Shown: in pieces, positions 8,139-48,007 of the stretch
Layout: every line of letters starts with the position of its first letter
How positions within the stretch are numbered: position 1 is the stretch's first letter
Assembly (NCBI GenBank): GCA_016177615.1
Contig: JACOUX010000012.1
Span: forward strand, 17,104 to 81,103
Origin: Candidatus Woesearchaeota archaeon
GTDB lineage: Archaea > Nanobdellota > Nanobdellia > Woesearchaeales > GW2011-AR4
Direction: 5' to 3'
DNA: 64,000 bases
Notes under the pieces: model-generated
What the model was told of the DNA's origin: nothing
What the model saw: only the letters and a program-made list of their open reading frames with translations
Database searches by the model: none
Program-made: the position numbers and the translations under genes

Positions 8139-8606
8139 TTAATTCTCTTTTTCTTTAAGCTTGGCAAGCCCTGTGACATCCCCGCCTGCCTCCTTGACCT
8201 TCTGAACTGCAGCTTTTGAAGCATATGGCACTTTTATCCTGAATTTCGCTGAAACTCTTCCATCGCCAAGAAGCTTGTTGTACCCAAGCTTTTCCAGCTC
8301 GACAGAATAAACCTCATTTTCTTTTTTTATTAAATTTTCTAAAAGAAACTTATTCAAATGCTGCTCAAGGTAGCTTATATTTACGGGATTTATTTTCACT
8401 TTCGGAGTCTTGCTCACAAATCCGTGCTTCCCGAAATAATTTTTGTCTTTCCATATGCTTGGCTTCTTAGAGTCAGCTCTTTTTCCGCTGCCGGCCATTC
8501 CTGCCCCTCCTTGATGGCCCTTTCCCCTGTGCTTCTTCTTCGAGCCCCAGCCATGGGTGCTATGCCCGCGCTGCCTTGTGTTTTTCTTGCGCTTGTTGAA
8601 TGTCAT
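8139..8606 (-). CDS. rpl15: Ribosomal protein L15 (uL15)
   Basis: Gly/basic-rich N-terminus (RGHSTHGWGSKKKHRGKGHQGGAGMAG). Sits between L30 and SecY. Confidence 0.92.
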   Translation of the reverse strand: MTFNKRKKNTRQRGHSTHGWGSKKKHRGKGHQGGAGMAGSGKRADSKKPSIWKDKNYFGKHGFVSKTPKVKINPVNISYLEQHLNKFLLENLIKKENEVYSVELEKLGYNKLLGDGRVSAKFRIKVPYASKAAVQKVKEAGGDVTGLAKLKEKEN

Positions 8607-8607
8607 T
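8579..8607 (-). repeat. Direct repeat copy 2 (rpl15 start codon plus first 9 codons)
   Basis: tgtttttcttgcgcttgttgaatgtcat(t) is identical to 8943-8971. Confidence 0.9.
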
Positions 8608-8631
8608 TTATTTACAGTTTAATCTTTTTCT

Positions 8632-8970
8632 TTAGCCATATAGAATTACGCCTTTTTCAATTATATTTTTCATAAAATCATCTTCCATCTCTAGCCTCTC
8701 ATTAACTTCTTGAGGAGTGTAAATCAAAGGTTCTAAAGCAAACATACTATTTTCTTCTCTAAGTATTTCGCGTATCTTAACTGCCCTGTCAATATGTTTT
8801 GCATTCGTTTTTTTGATAATTAGCAAATCTATGTCGCTATCTCTCTTCGGACTGCCATAAGCGTATGAGCCAAATAGGATTATTTTTTGGGGATTATATC
8901 TGTCTATAATCTTTTTAGTAATACTAACCAATGTTTTCTCTATGTTTTTCTTGCGCTTGTTGAATGTCAT
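8632..8970 (-). CDS. Pol-beta-superfamily minimal nucleotidyltransferase (MNT-type, antitoxin-like)
   Basis: Hallmark ILFGSYAYGSPKRDSDIDLLII (GS...DxD). The first 9 codons are identical to those of rpl15. Confidence 0.8.
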   Translation of the reverse strand: MTFNKRKKNIEKTLVSITKKIIDRYNPQKIILFGSYAYGSPKRDSDIDLLIIKKTNAKHIDRAVKIREILREENSMFALEPLIYTPQEVNERLEMEDDFMKNIIEKGVILYG

Positions 8971-8971
8971 T
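8943..8971 (-). repeat. Direct repeat copy 1 (start of the nucleotidyltransferase gene)
   Basis: A 28-29 nt perfect match to 8579-8607, 364 bp away. Confidence 0.9.
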
Positions 8972-9007
8972 ATTGCCCCTTCTCCTCATACATTCTGACT
9001 AAGAGTC

Positions 9008-9256
9008 CTAAATCATCCTTGGAAGTATTCTCCAATTCTCAAAAATCTGCCTTGTTGTTTCAATGTGATGCATGATAAATGGTGTGACATCATCAGCGGA
9101 TAATATCCCTTCCAAGTAATTTTTTAGATATTTGTATAGCCTGTCACCATGATTAGTTTTTGGTGGTTCAGGACTTTGAACAGCTGCATTCATCTCCCTA
9201 ACCAAGACTACAGCTACTTGTGATGGGTTTTTTCTTCTTGGACTCTTCTTTGCCAT
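9008..9256 (-). CDS. Hypothetical small protein embedded in the r-protein operon
   Basis: The ATG lies 1 nt after the L30 stop, on the same strand as the operon. I recognise no motif, and no HEPN Rx4-6H. Confidence 0.4.
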   Translation of the reverse strand: MAKKSPRRKNPSQVAVVLVREMNAAVQSPEPPKTNHGDRLYKYLKNYLEGILSADDVTPFIMHHIETTRQIFENWRILPRMI

Positions 9257-9257
9257 T

Positions 9258-9704
9258 CTAAACCATCCTCTTTATCAAATCATTTATCTTTTCTCCGCGA
9301 TAGCCCAAAGCGCCGCCTTGCTTGAAGCTGTGCTTTAAGCCTTTTCTTCCGAGCCCTTTTCTCGGTGCATTCAGCCTAAAGAACTTTTTTATTTTCTTGT
9401 TGTTTACGACCATAAAATCATTGCGTCTTATCTTCCCCTTTGAATCTGATTCAGTTCCTTTAAACTCCTCTCCCCTCTTGCTGACCAGCTCATTGAAAGT
9501 TTCATCATCCACCTCGCCCCATGTAATGTAGTCTTTGGCCTTGCTCAGCATTCCTTCATTTATGGGTGTTTTTGGAATAATGATGCAGTAATTGCTCTTG
9601 TAAAGCCTGAGTATATCCAAAGTTTTTGCTATTCCCGGCTTGATTCCGGTAACTCCCCTTATCCGGACAGCTGCAATCTTCCTATTCATTTCTGTATTGC
9701 TCAT
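9258..9704 (-). CDS. rpl30: Ribosomal protein L30 (uL30)
   Basis: AAVRIRGVTGIKPGIAKTLDILRLYKSNYCIIIP. ATGA overlap with the S5 stop. Confidence 0.92.
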   Translation of the reverse strand: MSNTEMNRKIAAVRIRGVTGIKPGIAKTLDILRLYKSNYCIIIPKTPINEGMLSKAKDYITWGEVDDETFNELVSKRGEEFKGTESDSKGKIRRNDFMVVNNKKIKKFFRLNAPRKGLGRKGLKHSFKQGGALGYRGEKINDLIKRMV

Positions 9705-10567
9705 CTTGCAACAGCACCTTCTACAATGCTCAATGTATGAGACGTCTTTTCATCAATCTTGAACTGGACAAGATTCTGCAGCGCATCAAAACAGGCATAA
9801 AGAACATTCAGCTTGCTTCTCGTCTGGCCTTCTGTTCTTGACCAGATGTCCTTGATGCCTGCCAGCTTCAGCATTTTCTGGCACTCTTTCTCTATTTTCA
9901 GGCCTGTGCCTTTTGGCGCAGGCATAAGCATGACTTCTACCGAGCCGGCTTTTCCCCTTACCTTGAAAGGAACTGTATGCGGGCTCCCGCATCCGCATCC
10001 CCAGTCGCCGCAGCCCCTTCTTATTTTTATGACATTAAGCTTTGCGTGCCTTATCGCCTTTTCCCTTGCCGGCACAGTCTCTCTTGACTTGCCGTAGCCT
10101 ATTCCAATGTACCCGTCTTCATTTCCAACAATCGCGAAAGTTGCAAAATTCGGCTTATTGCCCTCCTGTGTTTTTTTCTGGGTCTGCTTGAAAACCCTTT
10201 TCTGGCCGCCGCCGAATTTTCCCTTTGATTGGCCAATCATCAAAAGGTCAGTTACAAGATTCGGGAGCAAAGCATCAACAATTTCAGGCTCAAGCATCCT
10301 TATTCTTTTGTCAAGGGCAAAGTCTATGCTTGTGACATCTCCGCTTTTCACCTTGATGCCAAGCGATGTTTTCGGCTTCCATGCTTCCTTTTCGAAAAGG
10401 CCTTTTTGCTTTGCCTCCTCAACCATGACTTCTTCTATCTCTTTTATCTCGCCAAGCTCTGTCGCTAGGCCCTCTGCAGGCTTCTCAACAATTGGGGCAT
10501 CTCCCTGCACCTCTTTGGCTTCTTTCTTTTCAACTTCTGCCTTTATTGGAGTTTTTTTCTTAGCCAT
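9701..10567 (-). CDS. rps5: Ribosomal protein S5 (uS5) with an acidic/basic N-terminal extension
   Basis: FATFAIVGNEDGYIGIGYGKSRETVPAREKAIRHAKLN...GTGLKIEKECQKMLKLAGIKDIW. Confidence 0.93.
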   Translation of the reverse strand: MAKKKTPIKAEVEKKEAKEVQGDAPIVEKPAEGLATELGEIKEIEEVMVEEAKQKGLFEKEAWKPKTSLGIKVKSGDVTSIDFALDKRIRMLEPEIVDALLPNLVTDLLMIGQSKGKFGGGQKRVFKQTQKKTQEGNKPNFATFAIVGNEDGYIGIGYGKSRETVPAREKAIRHAKLNVIKIRRGCGDWGCGCGSPHTVPFKVRGKAGSVEVMLMPAPKGTGLKIEKECQKMLKLAGIKDIWSRTEGQTRSKLNVLYACFDALQNLVQFKIDEKTSHTLSIVEGAVAR

Positions 10568-34759: not shown

Positions 34760-37700
34760 TTGGTATTTAAGAGATATATAAAAAAGCACGGCAAAAAGCT
34801 AGGGCCATACTACTACGAGAACGTCAGGGGTCATGACGGCAAAGTAAAATCTATTTATCTTGGGGTAAACCCGAATCACCATGTTAAGCATAAAGTCAGG
34901 AAGCCGTTGTTTTTTGTAATCCTAATTCTGGTATTGATCTTGATATTGGGCTCTGTTCTTTTTGTAATGCAAAATAAATCTTATCTCTTCAGTAAGGCAA
35001 GCGCACAGGAGCCGGATTTTGACATTGACCAGATCCTGCTGAAAGTGCTTGTAAGGAGCGGTGAATTCATAGATAAGCAGATAAGAATCATGAACACAGG
35101 AAATGAGCTTTCCAGCATAAAAGTCGAAGTTTCGGGCTTGTCTGATATAGTGAAGATTGATGATTCTTCCTTCTCCCTAAAACCCGGGCAGACTAAGGTT
35201 ATAAGCCTGAATTTCTCATCTTACCTGCCGCAGGACAAGATTGAGCAGCAGCCAGGAGTTTACATTGGCAAATTGATTGTTTCATCTGACAAGGCATCAA
35301 AGGAAATTCCGATAATCGCCGAGATTGAAACAAAGAACGTGCTTTTTGACATGAACTTGAATCCTGTTGCAATTGAGAGAAAGGTAAAGCAGGGCTCAGA
35401 CACAACAATTGAGGTGCGCCTTTTTAACCTGGAAAGTATAGAGTCCCAGAATGTTGATGTGGAATATTTTGTCAAAGACATCAACGGCAATACCATAGTT
35501 TCAGAAAGCGAAACTGTCGTTGTAAAAACCCAGGCATCCTTTTTCAAGACTCTTTCCATTCCAAAAAACCTGAAGCCGGGCCCATATATTTTTGCGGCAA
35601 TCACAAAATTCGGCAAATCAGTAGGGACTTCAAGCTATATGTTTGAGGTAATCGGGCCTGAGGAGAAGGGTTTCCTCCAGTTCTGCAAGAGCAGCATACT
35701 GTGCATGGGAATATCATTTACAACAATACTGCTGATGTTCGCATTGATGGCCTACCTATATTTCTTCTTTGGAGCCTATCTTTACGAAAAGTTCACTGGA
35801 GCGACAGCAAAAAAACCGAAGCCGAAAAGATTTGTGGATTATAAATTTAGGGAAGATGCAGCCGAACAAAGGGCAGGCTTCTTTAATAGGGTCCAAGACA
35901 GGATTGATCTGTGGAAAGAAAAGAGAAGGCAAAGAAGGGCTGAGAAGGACAAGCTGGAAATCAAGAAAGAATTGGAGCAGCTTAAAAGGCAAAGAAGGTT
36001 GGAGATTGAAAGGAAAAAGAGTGCATTAGAAGAGGAAAGAATAAGGCAGGAAGCATTAAGAAAGCTTGAAGAAGAGCAAAGGAAAAAGCAGCTGCAGGAT
36101 GCAAGGCTAAAGCTGCTGGAGCTTAGAAGGCAGGAAGAGCTCAGGAAAAAAGAGGAGCTGGAGAGAAAAAAAGCAGAAGAGGAAGAGGCAAAGCAGGAGC
36201 TTGAGGAGAAAAAGCTCAGGGAGATCGAGGAAAAACAAAAAGAGGAAGAAAAAAGGCAGAAGCGCCAGAAAAGAAAAAAGAAAATCAAAGACTTTTTGCG
36301 CAGGATTAGCCTTTACAAGGCTCCTGAAGAAAAAAAGCAGGCAGCATTGCAGAAAGAGAAAGAAAGGCTGGAAAGCCTGAAGAGGGAAAATGAGCTGCAG
36401 AGGCAAAGAAAGGCTGGACGAATTAAAATTGCCTTGAAGAAGTCAAAAAATCTCGATAAATTCCAATCCATATTAAGCGAAGCAAAAAAAGCTGTAGAAA
36501 CAGAAAATATTTCAAGGCTAGACAGGATTTATTTGAAGGCAAGCGAGCTCTATACGGCTTTGGATAACCGGGAAAAACAGTCGGTTTATGCTGACTTGAT
36601 GAAGCTATACGAGCAAAGAAACAGGCTTGCTAGGCAGCAGAAGATTGAGGAAGAGCTTCAAAAGAAAGAAGATGTGAAAAATAGAAAGGATGAAGAGGAA
36701 AGAAAAAAGCAGGAAGAAAGGTTGAAGAAGCAGGAAAAGCTTGAGAGAGCAAAGTTATGGAAAAAAAGGCGGGGAAAAGCCAAGGCATTCTTGCACAGGT
36801 TTGGCCTGTATAAGACTCCTGAAGAAAAAAAGCAGGCAGCATTGCAGAAAGAGAAAGAAAGGCTGGAAAGCCTGAAGAGGGAAAATGAGCTGCAGAGGCA
36901 AAAAGAGGCTGAGGAGAAAAGAAAGAAGGAAGAGGAGAGAAAAGAGCTAAAGGATGAAAAAGAAAGCAAGAAAAGGGAAGCAAGAAAACTGGAAGAGCAG
37001 AAAAAGCTGGCTTTGGAGGAGGAAAAGGGAAAGAGGGATGATATTGAAAGGGAGAAAAAGCAGAGAGAGCGAGAGGAGAAGCAAAAGGAATCACAAAGGC
37101 TGGCTGAAGAAAAGGCAAAAGCCATGCAGCTCGAGATTTCCAAGGAGATTGGGTCAAGGCTGGAAAAGAATAGGGCAGATAAAGAAATCCTTAGAAAAAA
37201 GCTGGAGGGGATTGAGGCTGACGAAAAATTATACGGCAGCAAATTTGGAGAGATTGAAGACAGGCTTGAAGGGATAGAACACGATATTATAACAAAGTCA
37301 AAAGCTCACAGCGACCTGAAGCTGCAGAAAAGCTCTTTGCTTGAAAAGCGCAATGCGCAAATTAAAGAATTTGAAAACAGGCTCAAAGAGGAAAAAAAGG
37401 CAATAAGCGCAAAAATCAAACAGGCAAAGGAAATGCTGGCCGAGAAAGAAATTGGTTTGATGAAAAAAGCCGAGGAGGAACTGGAAAAACTGGGCCCTGA
37501 AAAAAGGAAAACCTCGGAAAAATGGAAAAGGATGGAGGTCAGGGCAAAAATAAAGCTGGAAGAGCAGGCCTTGAAAGACGAGCTGAAGGTTGATGAGGGA
37601 AAAGAAGAGGACGAAACCAAAAAGTCAGAGGGTGAATACAAAAAAGCCGTCAAGGAACTGAACAGCAGGTTAAGCGGATTAAGGCAGGAGCTTGAAGAGC

Positions 37701-38080
37701 TAAAGAGCCGGAAAGAGCACTTGCTTGTTGAAAAGAAGCATTTGCCGGATATGCATTCCAGTATGGAAAGAAATGCTAAAAATATAAAAAATGAGATTTT
37801 AGCGCTTGATGCAGAGCATGAAAAGCTTGAATCAGAGCTGAAAAAATCCAAGCCAGCAACATTTGGGCTCTTTACCAAATTCAGGAAGCTAAAAAGCGGC
37901 AAAAGCATAGACAAATTCCGCGCAGCGCTTGAGGGAGCGCTTGAAGCGATAAAGAAGAATGACGTGCAAAAAGCAAAACAACTTTACATGGAAGCAAGAA
38001 ATATTTATGTTGATATGGAATATGATGAAAAGAAGGAAGTTTACAGCGACCTTATGGAGGTTTATAACAAGCTGCTGTGA
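34760..38080 (+). CDS. Giant bitopic membrane protein: N-terminal basic motif, TM1, two beta-sandwich-like ectodomains, TM2, ~750-aa K/E/R-rich coiled coil
   Basis: TTG start, forced by an in-frame TGA at 34751, with a GGGGTGA SD-like element 7 nt upstream. TM helices at aa ~50-70 and ~312-342. Contains internal repeats. I cannot name a family. Confidence 0.6.
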   Translation: MVFKRYIKKHGKKLGPYYYENVRGHDGKVKSIYLGVNPNHHVKHKVRKPLFFVILILVLILILGSVLFVMQNKSYLFSKASAQEPDFDIDQILLKVLVRSGEFIDKQIRIMNTGNELSSIKVEVSGLSDIVKIDDSSFSLKPGQTKVISLNFSSYLPQDKIEQQPGVYIGKLIVSSDKASKEIPIIAEIETKNVLFDMNLNPVAIERKVKQGSDTTIEVRLFNLESIESQNVDVEYFVKDINGNTIVSESETVVVKTQASFFKTLSIPKNLKPGPYIFAAITKFGKSVGTSSYMFEVIGPEEKGFLQFCKSSILCMGISFTTILLMFALMAYLYFFFGAYLYEKFTGATAKKPKPKRFVDYKFREDAAEQRAGFFNRVQDRIDLWKEKRRQRRAEKDKLEIKKELEQLKRQRRLEIERKKSALEEERIRQEALRKLEEEQRKKQLQDARLKLLELRRQEELRKKEELERKKAEEEEAKQELEEKKLREIEEKQKEEEKRQKRQKRKKKIKDFLRRISLYKAPEEKKQAALQKEKERLESLKRENELQRQRKAGRIKIALKKSKNLDKFQSILSEAKKAVETENISRLDRIYLKASELYTALDNREKQSVYADLMKLYEQRNRLARQQKIEEELQKKEDVKNRKDEEERKKQEERLKKQEKLERAKLWKKRRGKAKAFLHRFGLYKTPEEKKQAALQKEKERLESLKRENELQRQKEAEEKRKKEEERKELKDEKESKKREARKLEEQKKLALEEEKGKRDDIEREKKQREREEKQKESQRLAEEKAKAMQLEISKEIGSRLEKNRADKEILRKKLEGIEADEKLYGSKFGEIEDRLEGIEHDIITKSKAHSDLKLQKSSLLEKRNAQIKEFENRLKEEKKAISAKIKQAKEMLAEKEIGLMKKAEEELEKLGPEKRKTSEKWKRMEVRAKIKLEEQALKDELKVDEGKEEDETKKSEGEYKKAVKELNSRLSGLRQELEELKSRKEHLLVEKKHLPDMHSSMERNAKNIKNEILALDAEHEKLESELKKSKPATFGLFTKFRKLKSGKSIDKFRAALEGALEAIKKNDVQKAKQLYMEARNIYVDMEYDEKKEVYSDLMEVYNKLL
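36321..36407 (+). repeat. 87-bp perfect intragenic direct repeat, copy 1
   Basis: Identical to 36816-36902 at a 495-bp (165-codon, in-frame) offset. Encodes PEEKKQAALQKEKERLESLKRENELQRQ. Confidence 0.9.
36816..36902 (+). repeat. 87-bp perfect intragenic direct repeat, copy 2
   Basis: See copy 1. Confidence 0.9.
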
Positions 38081-39328: not shown

Positions 39329-39748
39329 ATGCAATACACCTTCCATGCATACGGCCATCCTGACATTCTCGGGACCCATAAAACAACACTGGAGTTCACG
39401 AAAGAAAAAGAGGTTACCCTGAATGGGAACTGCATCATCGGAGTTTGTGCAGATTTTGATTTTGATAAGCTGACGGAATTTATTAAAAAGGCCAGATCCA
39501 CAAAGATAACAATAAATGTCCATACAAGAGATAAAAAAATAAAAGAAATGATAAATGCAGAATTGAATCTGGATTTCAGCCATAACGAAGAGATTGTAAT
39601 AAGAAAGACTAATTTTATTTCTCAGAGGACTTTAGCAATAAAAGCAAACAAGGCTGCATTTGATTTAAACAGGCAGTTAATTGAGTTTTTAAAAGAAAAA
39701 CAGAATGTGATAGGTGTTGTAATGGTTTCTGAACGCCAATTTGAATGA
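39329..39748 (+). CDS. Conserved archaeal hypothetical protein (DUF371-like)
   Basis: A ~139-aa protein with HGHPDILGTHKTTLEFTKEKEVTLNGNCIIGV, which resembles my recollection of the DUF371 family. Confidence 0.5.
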   Translation: MQYTFHAYGHPDILGTHKTTLEFTKEKEVTLNGNCIIGVCADFDFDKLTEFIKKARSTKITINVHTRDKKIKEMINAELNLDFSHNEEIVIRKTNFISQRTLAIKANKAAFDLNRQLIEFLKEKQNVIGVVMVSERQFE

Positions 39749-39935: not shown

Positions 39936-41369
39936 ATGGAGTTATTCGGATTTAGAAGCAGTTTGCCGCAGGATTATGAAGAGAAAGCTGCTCTTGGGAT
40001 TGTTGTTGAAAATGGAATTATTTCTAGGAATACGCCACAGCCGTCCCATATAGCAAAAGTATTAGGAGAGCCTGCTGTCGATTCATATTACTTTATGCAT
40101 GCCTTGTTTCATGCCTTGGAAGGCGGGTTTGGAAGAAACAGGGGCTTTTTTGACTACGCCAGAAGGGACCACATAGCCATACAAAAGCACTCATTCAGCG
40201 CAGCGTTCAAGCCATATTACAGGCTTAACCGTAAACCATTTCCATCAAGGTATGTGCTTACAACAAGAGGGGTTGTAGGCAATCTGATACATGATATTCC
40301 AGAAGAGCACGGCCAAACACCTATTGGAGCTCTGATAGACATAGCCATAATACGGTATCTGCTTGGGGATACTGCCGGGACTGACGCAGATTTGCATACA
40401 AAGCATGGAATTTTAATTGTGGATTCAATAGAAGATAGGCTCAAGGAATTCAGCCCAATCAATCACGAAAATGTCTCTAAGCTTTTGGATACACAGCGGG
40501 GTAAAGTAGATGTTAAGCAAGGTAGCGTCCGTTATCATTACAATCAAGTATTGGGTTCGTTGCTTAAGTTTAAGGATTACGTTGAATTGAATGTAAATCC
40601 CAAAACTGAAGGCGTGCCGTCTCCGCAAAGCATGCCGCCTCAGGAAAAAAAACTGTTAATGGATATCATAATGAAATTATACAGCGGCGTGAATATGCAA
40701 ATGAAAGCCCGAGAATTGCCGGATGCCGCAAGTTTGAAATGCACTTTAACTAAAAATTATGATGAGATATTAGATTTGATGGCAAGACATGACTACATAC
40801 CTGTTGATGAAAGCCTTCTCTTGAAAAGGGATCCGGTGTTTTTATTGACGCTTAAAAAAACGCTTTATTACGCTTCATTAAGAAAAATGGCGAAAAAGGC
40901 CATGGAAGACGCGAAGCTTGCATTAGCAGGATGCCAGGTCATCGAGGATTCTTACGATTCTACAATGGTACAGTCTATTTCAGAATCCATCGGAACTATC
41001 GCTACCATGGATGTCAATAATCTCCATCATGCAACAAGCATTTACAGAAAGGCAAGAGGAAAAATAAATGTTGGCATCGAATTAGTTAAGGAGTTAAGCG
41101 GGCTAGGGGTGCCATATGAAACATTGAGGCTTGCTGTTGACTATGAGTACAGGACTCTAGAAGACAGGATAAAAAGCAGCATTAGTACATTCAGGAGAGA
41201 TGCTAAAGGAGAAACTGATTGGAACATTTATCTTAATGCTTTTTCCTTAATGAGCAAGAAACTGAAAAAGATGAGGTCTGATGTAAAACGGATGAAACAT
41301 CTTAGCACTGGGGGGCCATCACGAAAAAGAGTTCGTGGAATAATCACAAGAATGTCACAATTCCTATGA
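39936..41369 (+). CDS. Hypothetical protein; the N-terminal ~180 aa carry SpoT/Rel-hydrolase (HD)-like motifs, the rest is helical and unknown
   Basis: ATG preceded by AGGAGG. Motifs are H79/H85 ... LIHDIPEEHG (117-126) ... IEDRLKEF (165-172), colinear with H...HDxxED...ADRxHN of RSH hydrolase domains. Confidence 0.55.
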   Translation: MELFGFRSSLPQDYEEKAALGIVVENGIISRNTPQPSHIAKVLGEPAVDSYYFMHALFHALEGGFGRNRGFFDYARRDHIAIQKHSFSAAFKPYYRLNRKPFPSRYVLTTRGVVGNLIHDIPEEHGQTPIGALIDIAIIRYLLGDTAGTDADLHTKHGILIVDSIEDRLKEFSPINHENVSKLLDTQRGKVDVKQGSVRYHYNQVLGSLLKFKDYVELNVNPKTEGVPSPQSMPPQEKKLLMDIIMKLYSGVNMQMKARELPDAASLKCTLTKNYDEILDLMARHDYIPVDESLLLKRDPVFLLTLKKTLYYASLRKMAKKAMEDAKLALAGCQVIEDSYDSTMVQSISESIGTIATMDVNNLHHATSIYRKARGKINVGIELVKELSGLGVPYETLRLAVDYEYRTLEDRIKSSISTFRRDAKGETDWNIYLNAFSLMSKKLKKMRSDVKRMKHLSTGGPSRKRVRGIITRMSQFL

Positions 41370-41388
41370 TTTGAGGAGCTTTAAAAAA

Positions 41389-43671
41389 ATGCTAGCGCCA
41401 TTTGCTTTGATCAGCGAGGATGCACAAAACTATCTTATTAGCTTCCATGTAGTAAGGGAAGCATTTAGAAGAGGGGAGCTTCCGCCTCAAGAGTTAATGG
41501 ATTTTCTTTATGAATGGAGAGAAGCAGGACTCCTTTCAGAAGCCTATGCAGAGGAAGCCAGGCACAGCGAAAAGAATCTTGAAAGGATAATACAGCTTGC
41601 CGTCAGCGCGGTGAGCCGTGATACAAAATCCAGGACTAAGAAAACTGTTTTGACTGCTGACGGTGAAAAAGAAGCTGATTCGTACGAGCATGGTCATACT
41701 TCAAACATATATTATATCTTAAAGAGGATAAAGGAAGAAGCTGATTTTTGGCTTAAATCCATCGCAACGATAAACGACCAGTCAGAAACGGGCGCATTTG
41801 ACCAGAAGGGCTTCAGAATAATTGTTGAAAGCCCTAAAGCAAGGGAGTTCCGGTCCAGGAGGGGCTTTGAAGATTTAAGCAAAGAAGAAAAAGAAAGGTT
41901 CAAAGCCTTATTTCATGGATTAAAATTCTCCGAGCTTTCATCTCATGAAAAGGAAAAATTTTACAAAGCTTTTACAGTTGAGTACATGGGCCTGACAGAT
42001 GGTGAAAAGAGAAAATACAAAGCCAATTTCCAGGAATCACACAGAAAAATGTGTTTGGATCTTGCTAGCAGGATTGCAAGAGCCAGAATGTACGACACTA
42101 TACCCATAAACCCGCATTACATGAGACTGGACAATCTTGAAATGAGAGTCCAAAGGCAGGTTATTGGTGATCCCAACGGAAAAATGCTTCTTGAATTTGA
42201 ATACTTATTGAACAGGGGTAAAGGCAGCGATATCGGGTTTTATGAAACTCTGCTCCATCTGCTCCAAAAAGCTTCCCAGCAGGTACTAAGCAAAAACGGG
42301 AGAACTGCAGAATATATTGATCTCGCAGGAAGAAAAGCATATCTTGTAAATCTTGGAAATCTTGTAGTAAATTTTCATTTTTACGAAAGCTCTGATTCAT
42401 TTTCAGGCTTGGATATAGAAAACTTATCAGAAATCATTGATAAACGCTACAGAACCGCATTGAAAAGATTTTCTGATAAAGATATGGGGAAAAGAGAAAC
42501 CAGAATAATGGAGTATACAAGAATTGGCATGGAGAATATTCCATTGGGGCTTTTTATTTTTCCTGAAACAACAACAACTGATCTTATGAGCAAGTATCCT
42601 GACATGAAATTTGACGAATCGCATACCTTCGATACTTTCATCAAAGATCGAATTGGGCCAAATGCCGAGTCAAATGGGTATGAAAATCTGAAGCTTTTCC
42701 TGTCTTTTAACTCAACTACAAAAGAGATAAGCGGGGAGTGCCAGATAAGAGACACGATAATGGATTATGATGCCGAATTTGGAGTGGCATCCAAGTTCAG
42801 GACAGTGGAAGGCCACATATCCGAAAAGATACGAAGGTCAAAAAGAGGCGTTGCGGTTATTAGCGATAAGGATATTGAATTTGGCAATGCTTTTTTTCTC
42901 TCTGGGGAAGAAAACAATCAAATGTTTTCCCGAATTTATTCTGATTTCTACGCGAGATCTATTTTGGAGATTGCAGAAGAGATTGCAAAAATAGAGGTTA
43001 TAACAAAAGAGCAAAAGAAATTTAAAGATTTGTTTGAAAGAATCATATGTTTATACGCCGAGGCCAAAGACCGGGTAAACCCAAATGATTTTGAGTTAGT
43101 ATCTTCGTCCATAAACTCAGTTTTTGTTAAATATGTAAGGGAGCGTGGCATTGGCATACTTTCTTACCATGACAGCCTTTGGGAGATCAATGAAAAATTC
43201 AGGAAAGTTGCAGATCTTGGCGCTAAGCTTAATGTTTTTGCTGCCATAACAGATTTGGACGAGGTTATGCACAGAAGGCATATCGACATGCTGTATAATT
43301 CTTTCATTCAGATGTCCGCAAGTGCGAGCGAGCACAATGCCGTTACCTCGCTTGCTTTGGAAACACTGATTATGAATTATAATAAACGTTATGGAAATCA
43401 TGTTCCTACAAGCGTGCAAAACGCATATAGGCAAAGGATGCAGGAATTTTTCGAATCGGCAGGATGGAGGCTTTTGAAATTTGGAGGCAAGAATGTGGGG
43501 CATTTGCCACATAAACTTCATAAAAATATGAGCCCTCAGAAGACCAGGCAATTGATTTCTGAAGGCGGAATTGATGTCTCAGCAGAGAGCCCTTTGATGC
43601 AGTTTGATGCTGAGACTATTGGAAATATGGAGAGGATATATCGGATATTCCAAGGATACTTGAAGAAGTAA
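41389..43671 (+). CDS. Hypothetical large protein with a divergent RelA/SpoT-type (RSH) nucleotide pyrophosphokinase-like core split by a ~285-aa insertion
   Basis: ATG at 41389 with GAGGAG ~9 nt upstream; the track start is a TTG at 41371. Four colinear RSH synthetase motifs, described in the findings. Confidence 0.6.
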   Translation: MLAPFALISEDAQNYLISFHVVREAFRRGELPPQELMDFLYEWREAGLLSEAYAEEARHSEKNLERIIQLAVSAVSRDTKSRTKKTVLTADGEKEADSYEHGHTSNIYYILKRIKEEADFWLKSIATINDQSETGAFDQKGFRIIVESPKAREFRSRRGFEDLSKEEKERFKALFHGLKFSELSSHEKEKFYKAFTVEYMGLTDGEKRKYKANFQESHRKMCLDLASRIARARMYDTIPINPHYMRLDNLEMRVQRQVIGDPNGKMLLEFEYLLNRGKGSDIGFYETLLHLLQKASQQVLSKNGRTAEYIDLAGRKAYLVNLGNLVVNFHFYESSDSFSGLDIENLSEIIDKRYRTALKRFSDKDMGKRETRIMEYTRIGMENIPLGLFIFPETTTTDLMSKYPDMKFDESHTFDTFIKDRIGPNAESNGYENLKLFLSFNSTTKEISGECQIRDTIMDYDAEFGVASKFRTVEGHISEKIRRSKRGVAVISDKDIEFGNAFFLSGEENNQMFSRIYSDFYARSILEIAEEIAKIEVITKEQKKFKDLFERIICLYAEAKDRVNPNDFELVSSSINSVFVKYVRERGIGILSYHDSLWEINEKFRKVADLGAKLNVFAAITDLDEVMHRRHIDMLYNSFIQMSASASEHNAVTSLALETLIMNYNKRYGNHVPTSVQNAYRQRMQEFFESAGWRLLKFGGKNVGHLPHKLHKNMSPQKTRQLISEGGIDVSAESPLMQFDAETIGNMERIYRIFQGYLKK

Positions 43672-43697: not shown

Positions 43698-44312
43698 ATG
43701 AAATTAATAATAACTTCCAATTCATCTATAGACATGATTGCTGCTGAGCTAAATGGAAATGAGCCAGGGCTAGTGGTGTTGCCAGAAGGCTGTTGGGATG
43801 GAAATGAAAGGGTTCCTGATGAATTTATAGATGCAACACGTGAGCGTCGTGTGAGCATAATTGGAACCATGTGCACTGGGCAAGGCTATGATGTTGCTTA
43901 TTTGTTGAAGGGCGGCTCAGTAAAACCTGTGGCTATATACTTCCAAGGGCTGGGAGAAACTACAAAATCCGGCATATTAAGAATGCATGCAGAATTTGAA
44001 GCGCCGCATGATGTCTCTCCCACCAATGACCCAATTCTGGCAATCATCAGGCAGTGCAGCGAAATCTATAGCGGCTCTGCTCCCAGCAACCGCAAAGTAG
44101 ACTTGCTTTGTGTGCCTTCCTCGATAGACCATGCGCTGCATGATGGCACAAGAAAAATAATAGTAGACAATCATAGAGCAAGCGTTTCCGAAAGAACCCT
44201 GATGTTGCAGCCAGTGTTGTCTGACATTTACGGAAGCGGAATTTTCAGGCTTCCGGATTTTAAGAGATTTGGAGAGCAAAAAGACCAGTATATAGTGCAT
44301 AGTTATAGTTAA
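43698..44312 (+). CDS. Hypothetical protein with weak carbon-nitrogen hydrolase (nitrilase-superfamily)-like motif order
   Basis: GLVVLPEG (Glu motif), YDVAYLLKGGSVKPVAIY (Lys-region analogue), ILAIIRQCSEIY (Cys motif) and VDLLCVPSS follow the order and spacing of the CN-hydrolase fold. The protein is short (204 aa) and the Lys is uncertain. Confidence 0.45.
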   Translation: MKLIITSNSSIDMIAAELNGNEPGLVVLPEGCWDGNERVPDEFIDATRERRVSIIGTMCTGQGYDVAYLLKGGSVKPVAIYFQGLGETTKSGILRMHAEFEAPHDVSPTNDPILAIIRQCSEIYSGSAPSNRKVDLLCVPSSIDHALHDGTRKIIVDNHRASVSERTLMLQPVLSDIYGSGIFRLPDFKRFGEQKDQYIVHSYS

Positions 44313-46597: not shown

Positions 46598-48007
46598 TTA
46601 AATATTGTTATCTTTGATTTCTCTTTCTATACTGTTATAGAAGTCCAACAATTTCTTCCCTTTTTCAGAAAGCGAATAGTGAATTCTATGTATTTGACCA
46701 GTAGTCTTAATTTTTGTTTTTAATAATCCGATTTTTCTATGTTTTGATAGAATTGTAATAACTGTAACTAAAGAAAGTTGTAGATGCTCAGATATTTTTT
46801 GATTAGTATCATAACCCATATAAACCGCCTTAAGGTATTTCAGAGGCACACGACATCCCCTACATTTAAGGAATTTGGAATAAAAGTAAAATTTCCTTCT
46901 TTTGTGAGTGATGGCGTTAAGAGCTACTATTTTTTCAAAACTGTTAAAATCGTGAATTAAAGCAGACCAACAGCCTTTTTTAGCTCTCTTGTCTTCTATT
47001 ATTTTGCTTGTCCTTATATTCAGATTGTTACAGATTTTCTTAAAAAATGCAATATTATTCTTGCTGTTGTTAGTGAAACTAATAGTATTTCCGGTATTAT
47101 TGATGCTAACGCCCATATCGCCTCTCGATAACCCCCTGAAAAATTTTAAGGAATTTTCCTTGCTCCTGAGAGCCATTCGCTTACTATGAAGAAATAGTTC
47201 ATACACTGTTTCTGCTAAAGCTGAATTGTATATATTTACAAGGCAAACTCCAAATTTATCATTAACCAACTTGTTATTTATTATCTTAATTTTTTCTTTT
47301 TTAAGCCCAGAATCTGCCCAATATTTGATTAGACTATCGCGATTTTTCTCATTGTAATTACGAACTAATACCTGTGCAGTCCATTCTGATTTTTCAATCT
47401 TAAAAAGATTTTCCACGGAATTAATAAACCATATAATTTGGTCTATTTCTGAACTGGAATATGATAACCTGTCCAAATGATTTCTGATTTTTCTTGCCTT
47501 AAATCCTTCGCAAAAATAACCACCAAATAATTCTAAGAAATCATAATCATTCCTAGCTAATGGTATACACTTAGGTAATATGCACCATTTGTTACCAGTA
47601 GAGTATATCCAAATTAATACTTTATCACCTAATTCAAACACATAGAAATTTTTATCTCTGATGGTCTTTTGAGGTAAAATATTAGGCAAATTTATTTCTC
47701 CATTGATTTCTCCAATTTCCAGTTTTAAATTAAATGTTAAAAACTCAAAATCTATATCAGATTTGATTTGCAAATTTTTACCAATAGTTTGCGGAATAGG
47801 AAAACCATACATAAATCTATTATGACTTGTATGTAATATTCTGATTATGGTTGGAAATATGTGTCCATTAATTCTTAATAAAATAGCACTGCTCTCTTTT
47901 AATTTTAAAAGCTTAGACTCATTTTGTTTCATAGTTGCAAAATAAGAGTGATACTGCTTATTTTTATTCATAATATACACTCTTGCTTTAAATTTCATCT
48001 TAATCAA
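46598..48007 (-). CDS. Free-standing LAGLIDADG-type homing-endonuclease-like protein with a C-terminal winged-helix domain
   Basis: Two degenerate LAGLIDADG-like motifs (FLELFGGYFCEGF and LKFFRGLSRGDMGV) separated by ~120 aa. C-terminal MarR-like wHTH (ISEHLQLSLVTVITILSKHRKIGLL...YSLSEKGKKLL). The gene is strongly AT-rich. Confidence 0.55.
   Translation of the reverse strand: MIKMKFKARVYIMNKNKQYHSYFATMKQNESKLLKLKESSAILLRINGHIFPTIIRILHTSHNRFMYGFPIPQTIGKNLQIKSDIDFEFLTFNLKLEIGEINGEINLPNILPQKTIRDKNFYVFELGDKVLIWIYSTGNKWCILPKCIPLARNDYDFLELFGGYFCEGFKARKIRNHLDRLSYSSSEIDQIIWFINSVENLFKIEKSEWTAQVLVRNYNEKNRDSLIKYWADSGLKKEKIKIINNKLVNDKFGVCLVNIYNSALAETVYELFLHSKRMALRSKENSLKFFRGLSRGDMGVSINNTGNTISFTNNSKNNIAFFKKICNNLNIRTSKIIEDKRAKKGCWSALIHDFNSFEKIVALNAITHKRRKFYFYSKFLKCRGCRVPLKYLKAVYMGYDTNQKISEHLQLSLVTVITILSKHRKIGLLKTKIKTTGQIHRIHYSLSEKGKKLLDFYNSIEREIKDNNI

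Follow-up and report, generated by a model that had tools for sequence, protein, structure and literature searches.

The DNA examined here, referred to as the window, is a stretch of 64,000 nucleotides from a Candidatus Woesearchaeota archaeon (GenBank assembly GCA_016177615.1, contig JACOUX010000012.1, positions 17,104 to 81,103, forward strand). Its context is that of an archaeal chromosome, with genes for aIF5B, a PUA-domain protein, Trm1, and a DRG-type GTPase as well as a ribosomal-protein cluster. Embedded among translation genes are two adjacent genes, which we call A and B (Table 1). Judged by its sequence, the product of gene B is a real RSH (RelA/SpoT-homologue) synthetase-domain protein from an archaeon of the DPANN group, and gene A probably encodes an RSH-type hydrolase.

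The mechanical open reading frame (ORF) of gene B begins at TTG 41371, which an earlier note on this DNA had adopted as the start. ATG 41389 is the likelier true start because it is preceded by GAGGAG at 41373–41378, the alignments of the homologues begin at its Met, and the resulting 760-aa translation is identical to GenBank MBI1935176.1, a "hypothetical protein" of Candidatus Woesearchaeota. Gene B residues are therefore counted from ATG 41389, and adding six gives the numbering of the earlier note.

Table 1. Features at the gene A–gene B locus, in coordinates of the window; residue numbers are those of the respective protein.
Feature	Coordinates	Strand	Description
1106-aa ORF	34760–38080	+	N-terminal membrane segment; highly charged Lys/Glu-rich coiled-coil region; no Pfam match
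DUF371 gene	39329–39748	+	PF04027, E = 1.3e-34; always directly upstream of gene A in colinear loci
Gene A	39936–41369	+	477 aa; directly upstream of gene B; H84...H118-D119-IP-E122-E123 signature
Gene B coding sequence	41389–43671	+	760 aa plus stop
N-terminal helical region	41389–41628	+	Residues 1–80; three helices (AlphaFold2), followed by a beta-hairpin at 83–98
N-half of the RSH synthetase domain	41686–41868	+	Residues 100–160; strand 107–114, Syn1 helix 117–130, Syn2 strand 140–146
Syn1 motif	41725–41757	+	R113-I-K115-EEADFWL-K123, from the translation; RSH pattern R-x-K-x3-S-x3-K, with Asp119 in place of Ser
Syn2 motif	41800–41829	+	D138-QKGF-R143-IIV-E147; Mg-binding catalytic Asp on strand beta2, by alignment to RelP/RelA
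Family-specific insertion	41869–42597	+	Residues 161–403; three short helices, helix 204–231, two beta-sheets, helices 343–377
Triple helix repeat of the insertion	41872–42081	+	Residues 162–231
PHYMxLxxLxLRVQRQ segment of the insertion	42094–42228	+	Residues 236–280
C-half of the RSH synthetase domain	42598–42828	+	Residues 404–480; strands 406–408, 434–439, and 448–455, then helices
Syn3 (acceptor-base) motif	42673–42693	+	N429-G-Y431-E-N-L-K435; canonical NGYxSxH, with Asn for Ser and Lys for His
Syn4 and Syn5-like motifs	42736–42795	+	E450-C-Q452-I-R454-D and A462-E-F-G-V-A-S-K469; canonical AExGxAxH, with Lys for His
C-terminal all-helical domain	42841–43668	+	Residues 485–760; hairpin 694–706; invariant Y664
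Gene C	43698–44312	+	204-aa ORF 3' of gene B; no Pfam, NCBIfam, or PADLOC match
LAGLIDADG_3 ORF	46598–48007	-	469 aa; between aIF5B and Trm1

Relatives of gene B were found by an exhaustive profile search with a hidden Markov model against 1.84 billion representatives, which returned 25 sequences. About 17 of these are full-length (740–810 aa), and all carry the insertion. Word-indexed homology searches with the protein or with alignments found two to three relatives only. Each named member is annotated as a "hypothetical protein" of Candidatus Woesearchaeota. We also scanned GTDB with one genome per species, using a 6-sequence alignment, because the sequences of the 18-member one had diverged too far to be scanned for by pattern. 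The first genome scan gave no family member; the members found in GTDB come only from metagenome-assembled genomes (MAGs) of Woesearchaeota or Nanoarchaeota, plus one MAG labelled Methanosarcinales. As far as sampled, the gene B family is confined to Woesearchaeota.

The earlier note had proposed that gene B contains four peptide strings colinear with the RelA/SpoT synthetase motifs, and all four are present in the ORF at the positions given there, including FDQKGFRIIV at 41797–41826 and NGY at 42673. Syn1 of gene B aligns with RVKSFESIVNK of RelP and with GRPKHIYSIWRK of E. coli RelA, and R113, K115, and K123 are all present in the window protein. In the alignment of 18 family members, K115 is invariant and K123 nearly so. 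The note had read the R-x-K of its first motif as altered to H-x-S. This was an error of alignment register: the profile alignments place R-x-K...K on R113-I-K115...K123 (R119-I-K121...K129 in the numbering of the note), so that the replacement is not real. The string taken for motif 1, GHTSNIYYILKRI, is the beta strand preceding Syn1, and the retained R-x-K-x7-K lies 10 residues downstream of it. Syn2 aligns with DIAGVRII of RelP and DVRAVRIV of RelA, with D138 invariant and E147 nearly invariant; when the insertion-free sequences were aligned with RelP, RelQ, and RelA, the proposed D-x4-R motif was borne out.

The Syn4–Syn5 segment of gene B aligns with VEIQIRTKQMHEDAELGVAAHWKYKE of RelA. 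The claim that E-x-Q-I-R is retained holds, as E450 and Q452 are invariant among the 18 homologues and R454, like R143, is present in the window protein. The complete set of invariant positions in this alignment comprises K115, D138, Q257, E450, Q452, and Y664. In Syn3, the Tyr is kept in most members. The Lys for His that the note had seen after NGY is real in the window protein, where NGYxSxH has become NGYENLK. Across the 18 members, the His position is occupied by Lys in 11, His in three, Gln in three, and Tyr in one. Lys is typical of the near clade, and the three His-bearing members are distant ones. The most canonical members, P0010, P0012, and P0021, retain GYESVH or GYSAIH in Syn3, and distant members retain both GYESVH and the AxH of the canonical Syn5 pattern AxHWxYK. 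The substitution of Lys for His in Syn3 and Syn5 suggests a modified acceptor site, or an efficiency unlike that of the canonical enzymes; it may reflect the changed substrate handling that the note had proposed, or reduced activity.

Against Pfam, native gene B matched PF04607 (RelA_SpoT) with E = 1.4e-4 and 22.5 bits over profile positions 57–107, which correspond to motifs 3 and 4, and NCBIfam gave a weak RelA match over the same stretch. Eleven of the 18 native members matched PF04607 at E < 0.01, the best at E = 8.5e-11. The family consensus, ExQIRDPxMxxxAExGxAxHxxxK, is the Syn4–Syn5 signature of RSH enzymes, and motifs 3 and 4 therefore represent real homology. When the family profile was searched against the PDB, solved chains of E. 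coli RelA, RelSeq, other Rel proteins, RelP, and RelQ were matched at E = 1e-7 to 3e-5, and the only PDB sequence returned that was not an RSH chain was one marginal, spurious match. The best PDB matches of the C-half were long RSHs, including the AExGxAxH..K segment. The single gene B protein and a 2-sequence profile gave no relevant match among the PDB sequences.

Four short motifs in an unrelated helical protein might be colinear by chance, and the native Pfam score, which lies under the gathering cut-off with half of the model covered, would be compatible with such an accident. Because HMMER alone did not bridge the long gap, we excised the insertion in silico, joining residues 98–160 to 404–480 in all 18 sequences. 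Spliced gene B scored 29.1 bits (cut-off 27) over positions 2–107 of the 113 in PF04607, and 16 of the 18 spliced members matched, the best at E = 9.3e-14. The spliced profile aligned with RelP (6fgk) over the entire synthetase domain at E = 1.8e-8, with RVK and DxxGxRII in register, and it spanned the full domain of S. aureus RelP, RelQ, and RelA too (E = 1.8e-8 to 1e-6). As a control, the N-half was reversed, which cost 4.4–9.3 bits in five of five sequences and shrank the alignment to the C-half; the window protein treated in this way kept 23.5 bits over PF04607 positions 57–107 only. With the profile of the N-half alone, the top four of 177,635 PDB sequences were small alarmone synthetases (SAS) of the RelP/RelQ type, at E = 0.16–0.38 and in the correct register. 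These comparisons show homology of residues ~100–160 to the first half of the RSH synthetase domain and of residues ~404–480 to its second half.

A model of the protein built by AlphaFold2 from the 18-sequence alignment (m565ff092f7d8) reached a predicted local distance difference test score (pLDDT) of 87.6 and a predicted template modeling score of 0.81; with a 2-sequence alignment, the pLDDT was 39 and the model unusable. In the usable model, strand 107–114 is followed by the Syn1 helix (117–130), the Syn2 strand (140–146), and the insertion, after which come strand 406–408, the Syn3 strand (434–439), the Syn4 strand (448–455), and helices at 456–483. The predicted five core strands and Syn1 helix thus match the canonical RSH order, the comparison being one of secondary-structure order alone. 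This agreement, the significance reached at the family level (E down to 9.3e-14 with Pfam and 1.8e-8 with the PDB), the restriction of the PDB matches essentially to RSH chains, and the disappearance of the N-half signal in the reversed-sequence control make chance colinearity extremely improbable, and on these comparisons we regard chance resemblance of the gene B motifs as excluded. The profile, splice, and control results thus uphold what the earlier note had proposed, namely that gene B has a true synthetase domain of the RelA/SpoT type, interrupted by a long insertion, and that its motif matches go beyond chance. More generally, interrupted domains can be missed or half-detected by standard domain scans, and here excision restored a full-length Pfam match.

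Motifs 2 and 3 are separated by ~280 aa, in agreement with the note, and the net insertion relative to a canonical RSH is ~240 aa (226–340 aa across all 18 members). It is placed between the helix that follows strand beta2 and strand beta3. The insertion opens with a triple helix repeat, L[ST]xxEKxx[FY]xxxF, which occurs family-wide and reads LSKEEKERFKALF, LSSHEKEKFYKAF, and LTDGEKRKYKANF in the window protein. One relative gave a weak match to DUF3106. Two beta-sheets follow, at residues 236–275 (PHYM..LRVQRQ) and 298–331. Within the PHYMxLxxLxLRVQRQ segment, Q257 is invariant and Pro239 and Arg253 are nearly so, and the sheet at 233–280 has a mean pairwise identity of 33%, compared with 31–32% for the catalytic core. 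As it is conserved as strongly as the catalytic residues, this segment may form part of the active site or of a surface used for binding. The insertion had no match in Pfam, in the PDB (family profile), or by Foldseek (whole model).

The regions flanking the split domain are helical as well. The N-terminal region, with a mean pairwise identity of 30% across the family, had no match in Pfam or the PDB. The C-terminal domain is the least conserved part (21%), and, as the note had claimed, these ~280 aa are helical and match neither TGS nor ACT, nor any other Pfam family. The sequence and profile comparisons show an RSH catalytic domain flanked by novel helical domains instead of TGS and ACT.

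Gene A encodes the putative partner. RSH hydrolase domains are marked by HP...HDxxED, and the similar pattern H...HDxxE[DE]xG is invariant in the gene A homologues, which are 450–580 aa long; H46, H80, D81, and E84 are the invariant positions in the gene A family alignment. For the gene A of the window, assignment of the fourth metal ligand is ambiguous. BLASTP aligned gene A with its counterpart at locus L003 at E = 1e-33. A profile of five gene A N-termini had two PDB matches at E <= 10, both of them Rel hydrolase domains with the three motifs aligned. A further partner candidate was found at locus L017, which encodes the distant family member P0021 in a similar neighborhood (aIF5B, PUA, DUF371). 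There, a 676-aa protein (8297–10327, minus strand) is convergent to the gene B homologue and not upstream of it. This protein matched Rel and small-alarmone-hydrolase structures at E = 3.1e-5 to 2e-4, with RxSGxPYxxHP, HDxxE, and KLADRxxN aligned, and it carries KLADRINN. At L019, again the locus of a distant member, a 481-aa convergent protein (8360–9805, minus strand) shows motif-level similarity only (DYYAIHLIE, GHDNLE, SDRLNQ). An 807-aa neighbor at L007 was considered as an A- or B-like protein and rejected, as it has no similarity to either. From these sequence patterns, gene A is probably an RSH-type hydrolase.

The two genes are separated by 19 bp in the window, on the same strand, and homologues of A and B are adjacent in at least seven distinct loci. 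The order DUF371–gene A homologue–gene B homologue is kept in L003, L006, L008, L011, L020, and L022, and in most cases a PUA gene and aIF5B, both encoded on the other strand, come after the block. In L022 it is intact despite rearranged surroundings. The DUF371–A–B block thus appears to behave as a conserved triad even where its flanks are rearranged. Structures of DUF371 proteins have been solved, but we found no useful literature on their function, and DUF371 was set aside as a functional clue. Between the window and L003, identity is 74% for aIF5B, 36% for gene B, and 23% for gene A; by these comparisons the A–B pair is fixed in position and fast-evolving.

Such a tight two-gene, same-strand pair conserved across loci could also be a toxin–antitoxin or antiviral module of the toxic SAS (toxSAS) kind. 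In that case B would be an RSH toxin that arrests growth and makes (pp)pApp or pyrophosphorylates tRNA CCA ends. Its antitoxin would be A, acting either as a hydrolase that degrades the product (type IV, as with ATfaRel) or by direct binding. The rapid evolution of A and B relative to their neighbors and the resemblance of the hydrolase-like partner to the FaRel/small-alarmone-hydrolase arrangement (bioRxiv 10.1101/575399) are consistent with it. However, the pair keeps one conserved chromosomal position across diverged genomes, with DUF371–A–B beside PUA, aIF5B, and Trm1, which points to vertical inheritance and not to a mobile island. Searches of IMG/VR viral contigs and of GenBank phages gave no relatives, and proteins of 760 and 477 aa are far larger than known toxSAS/antitoxin pairs. 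PADLOC returned no match to an RSH, toxSAS, or toxin–antitoxin model: gene B had two weak non-RSH matches (Cas9 PDLC01104, E = 0.0016; a CARF model, E = 0.018), and genes A and C had none, which leaves assignment to a defense system unsupported. We consider a toxSAS-like module quite unlikely.

Gene C, immediately downstream of gene B, was rejected as a part of the system, as it is not conserved in the relatives. What separates gene B from the PUA gene is variable: in the relatives this space is empty or occupied by unrelated genes, for a 281-aa protein, a GNAT acetyltransferase, or a 206-aa protein. The LAGLIDADG_3 ORF lies in a stretch of low GC content (0.34 versus ~0.41–0.44). In L003, L008, and L020 there is no large gene between aIF5B and Trm1, and none of the relatives examined has a LAGLIDADG ORF at this position; the ORF therefore seems to be a homing-endonuclease-like gene that was inserted in this strain specifically. 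The 1106-aa ORF contains internal duplications, for example KTPEEKKQAALQKEKERLESLKRENELQRQ, which occurs twice, and in L008 a similar long ORF precedes an Asn-synthase-like gene.

Taken as a whole, genes A and B are, with fair probability, a strongly diverged RSH hydrolase/synthetase pair of Woesearchaeota that is split into two genes. By analogy with RelSeq, RelP, and RelQ, R113, K115, and K123 would hold the ATP phosphates, D138 and E450 would bind Mg2+, and Y431 would stack on the acceptor base. The 3'-OH of the acceptor would then attack the beta-phosphate of ATP, yielding AMP and a 3'-pyrophosphorylated product. Candidate acceptors are GDP/GTP, ADP/ATP, or, by comparison with toxSAS enzymes, the 3' end of an RNA, and the product would accordingly be a nucleotide resembling (p)ppGpp or (p)ppApp or an RNA pyrophosphorylated at its 3' end. 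Gene A would supply the cognate HD-type 3'-pyrophosphohydrolase for this product, so that A and B together might act like a Rel divided between two genes with the HD-then-SYNTH order preserved. The insertion and the helical domains could serve as sensor or targeting parts. More tentatively, and with some doubt on our part, Woesearchaeota may vertically inherit a two-gene Rel-like alarmone system of their own, with a sensor insertion of ~240 residues and new regulatory domains of helical fold; given the Lys-for-His changes at the acceptor site of gene B, its product or acceptor might also differ.

Several results weigh against the assignment to a split RSH pair. The 22.5 bits of native gene B fall below the curated PF04607 cut-off of 27, and whole-chain Foldseek searches of PDB and BFVD gave nothing significant (best E = 0.08 and 0.15), with FaRel (8pu1_B) only at rank 20 (E = 0.9). 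The Foldseek searches were uninformative, probably because the interrupted core and the long helical regions defeat a sequential search. The window protein lacks the His residues of Syn3 and Syn5 as well as the Ser of Syn1, and the Arg of ExQIR (the R454 position) is Met in four of the 18 members (P0005, P0006, P0007, and P0009), so that loss or change of activity is possible. For gene A, the link between its profile and the Rel hydrolases is sub-significant (E = 0.14 and 1.6), Pfam gave no match, including HD_4, and the L017 protein is only weakly linked to the gene A of the window type (hhalign E = 0.026 over 17 columns). The distant members at L007 and L018 have no recognizable A-like neighbor.

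These same substitutions, together with the Syn3 Ser that the window protein has also lost, would suit a catalytically dead RSH-derived scaffold that keeps the fold but now has a structural or regulatory function or one in binding, such as the binding of nucleotides or of a translation component. The conservation of large non-catalytic regions, with Q257 and Y664 invariant outside the RSH core, is likewise in its favor. Yet the Syn2 Asp, the Syn4 Glu, and the Syn1 Lys, the residues tied most directly to catalysis in RSH enzymes, are invariant although identity between members is only ~20%. Few parts of the protein are conserved as well as the catalytic core, and the presence of a conserved hydrolase-like partner is easiest to understand if gene B does make a product. 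A dead scaffold is therefore, in our view, unlikely, and the split hydrolase/synthetase pair is the reading we retain.

If Woesearchaeota do inherit such a two-gene alarmone system vertically, it would be a lineage-wide counterpart, in archaea, of the enzyme behind the bacterial stringent response. An active enzyme would mean that these host-dependent, genome-reduced DPANN archaea have a nucleotide-alarmone or RNA-end-modifying switch, and that the RSH fold tolerates a domain of ~240 residues between strands beta2 and beta3. It would also offer a natural hydrolase/synthetase split in which the coordination of the two activities could be studied. The gene A–gene B system represents no new enzymatic principle; its interest is for specialists in RSH enzymes and DPANN archaea.

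Our literature searches turned up neither an account of an RSH whose synthetase domain is interrupted by an insertion nor one of the gene A–gene B pair. According to Atkinson et al. 2011 (PMC3153485), archaea are without long RSHs and have sporadic SAS and small-alarmone-hydrolase genes, probably from bacteria. Li et al. 2021 (PMC8407392) reported an eggNOG "RelA/SpoT" assignment in 41.7% of Woesearchaeota and attributed it to bacterial transfer, with the architecture absent from their account. The gene B family departs from the picture of PMC3153485 in being multi-domain, syntenic, and apparently vertical in Woesearchaeota, with a hydrolase-like partner.

Compared with the long RSHs, such as RelSeq (1VJ7) and E. 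coli RelA (5IQR), gene B has Syn1–Syn5 in colinear order, and the order of genes A and B mirrors that of the hydrolase and synthetase domains. In contrast to them, the hydrolase-like domain and the synthetase are on separate polypeptides, the synthetase domain holds an insertion of ~240 aa, and the host is archaeal. Gene B also has no HD match and none of the TGS, helical, ZFD, and ACT regulatory domains, and unrelated N- and C-terminal helical domains stand in the place of the latter. The SAS enzymes RelP and RelQ (6FGK, 6EWZ, 5DEC) are the best full-domain matches of spliced gene B (E = 1.8e-8), and their RVK...K and D..G.RII align with it. They are, however, single-domain proteins of ~210–250 aa, whereas gene B has 760 aa, altered Syn3 and Syn5 residues, and extra regions of ~100 aa (N-terminal), ~240 aa (insertion), and ~280 aa (C-terminal) in all relatives.

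In the toxSAS systems (FaRel/ATfaRel small alarmone hydrolase, FaRel2, PhRel, CapRel), RSH folds are able to make (pp)pApp or modify tRNA, and as at this locus an RSH synthetase lies beside a partner gene. The gene A–gene B pair differs from them in its fixed synteny, its narrow lineage distribution, the lack of phage or viral relatives among those found, and its much larger proteins, and the Foldseek similarity of gene B to FaRel is not significant. The partner of FaRel is an alarmone hydrolase (bioRxiv 10.1101/575399). With the small alarmone hydrolases and Mesh1, gene A shares the H...HDxxED metal/catalytic signature, and the L017 partner of P0021 matches both a small alarmone hydrolase (7QOC) and Rel hydrolase domains. 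Gene A is distinguished from these enzymes by the absence of a Pfam HD_4 match, by its length of 450–580 aa across the family, and by its long helical C-terminal extension.

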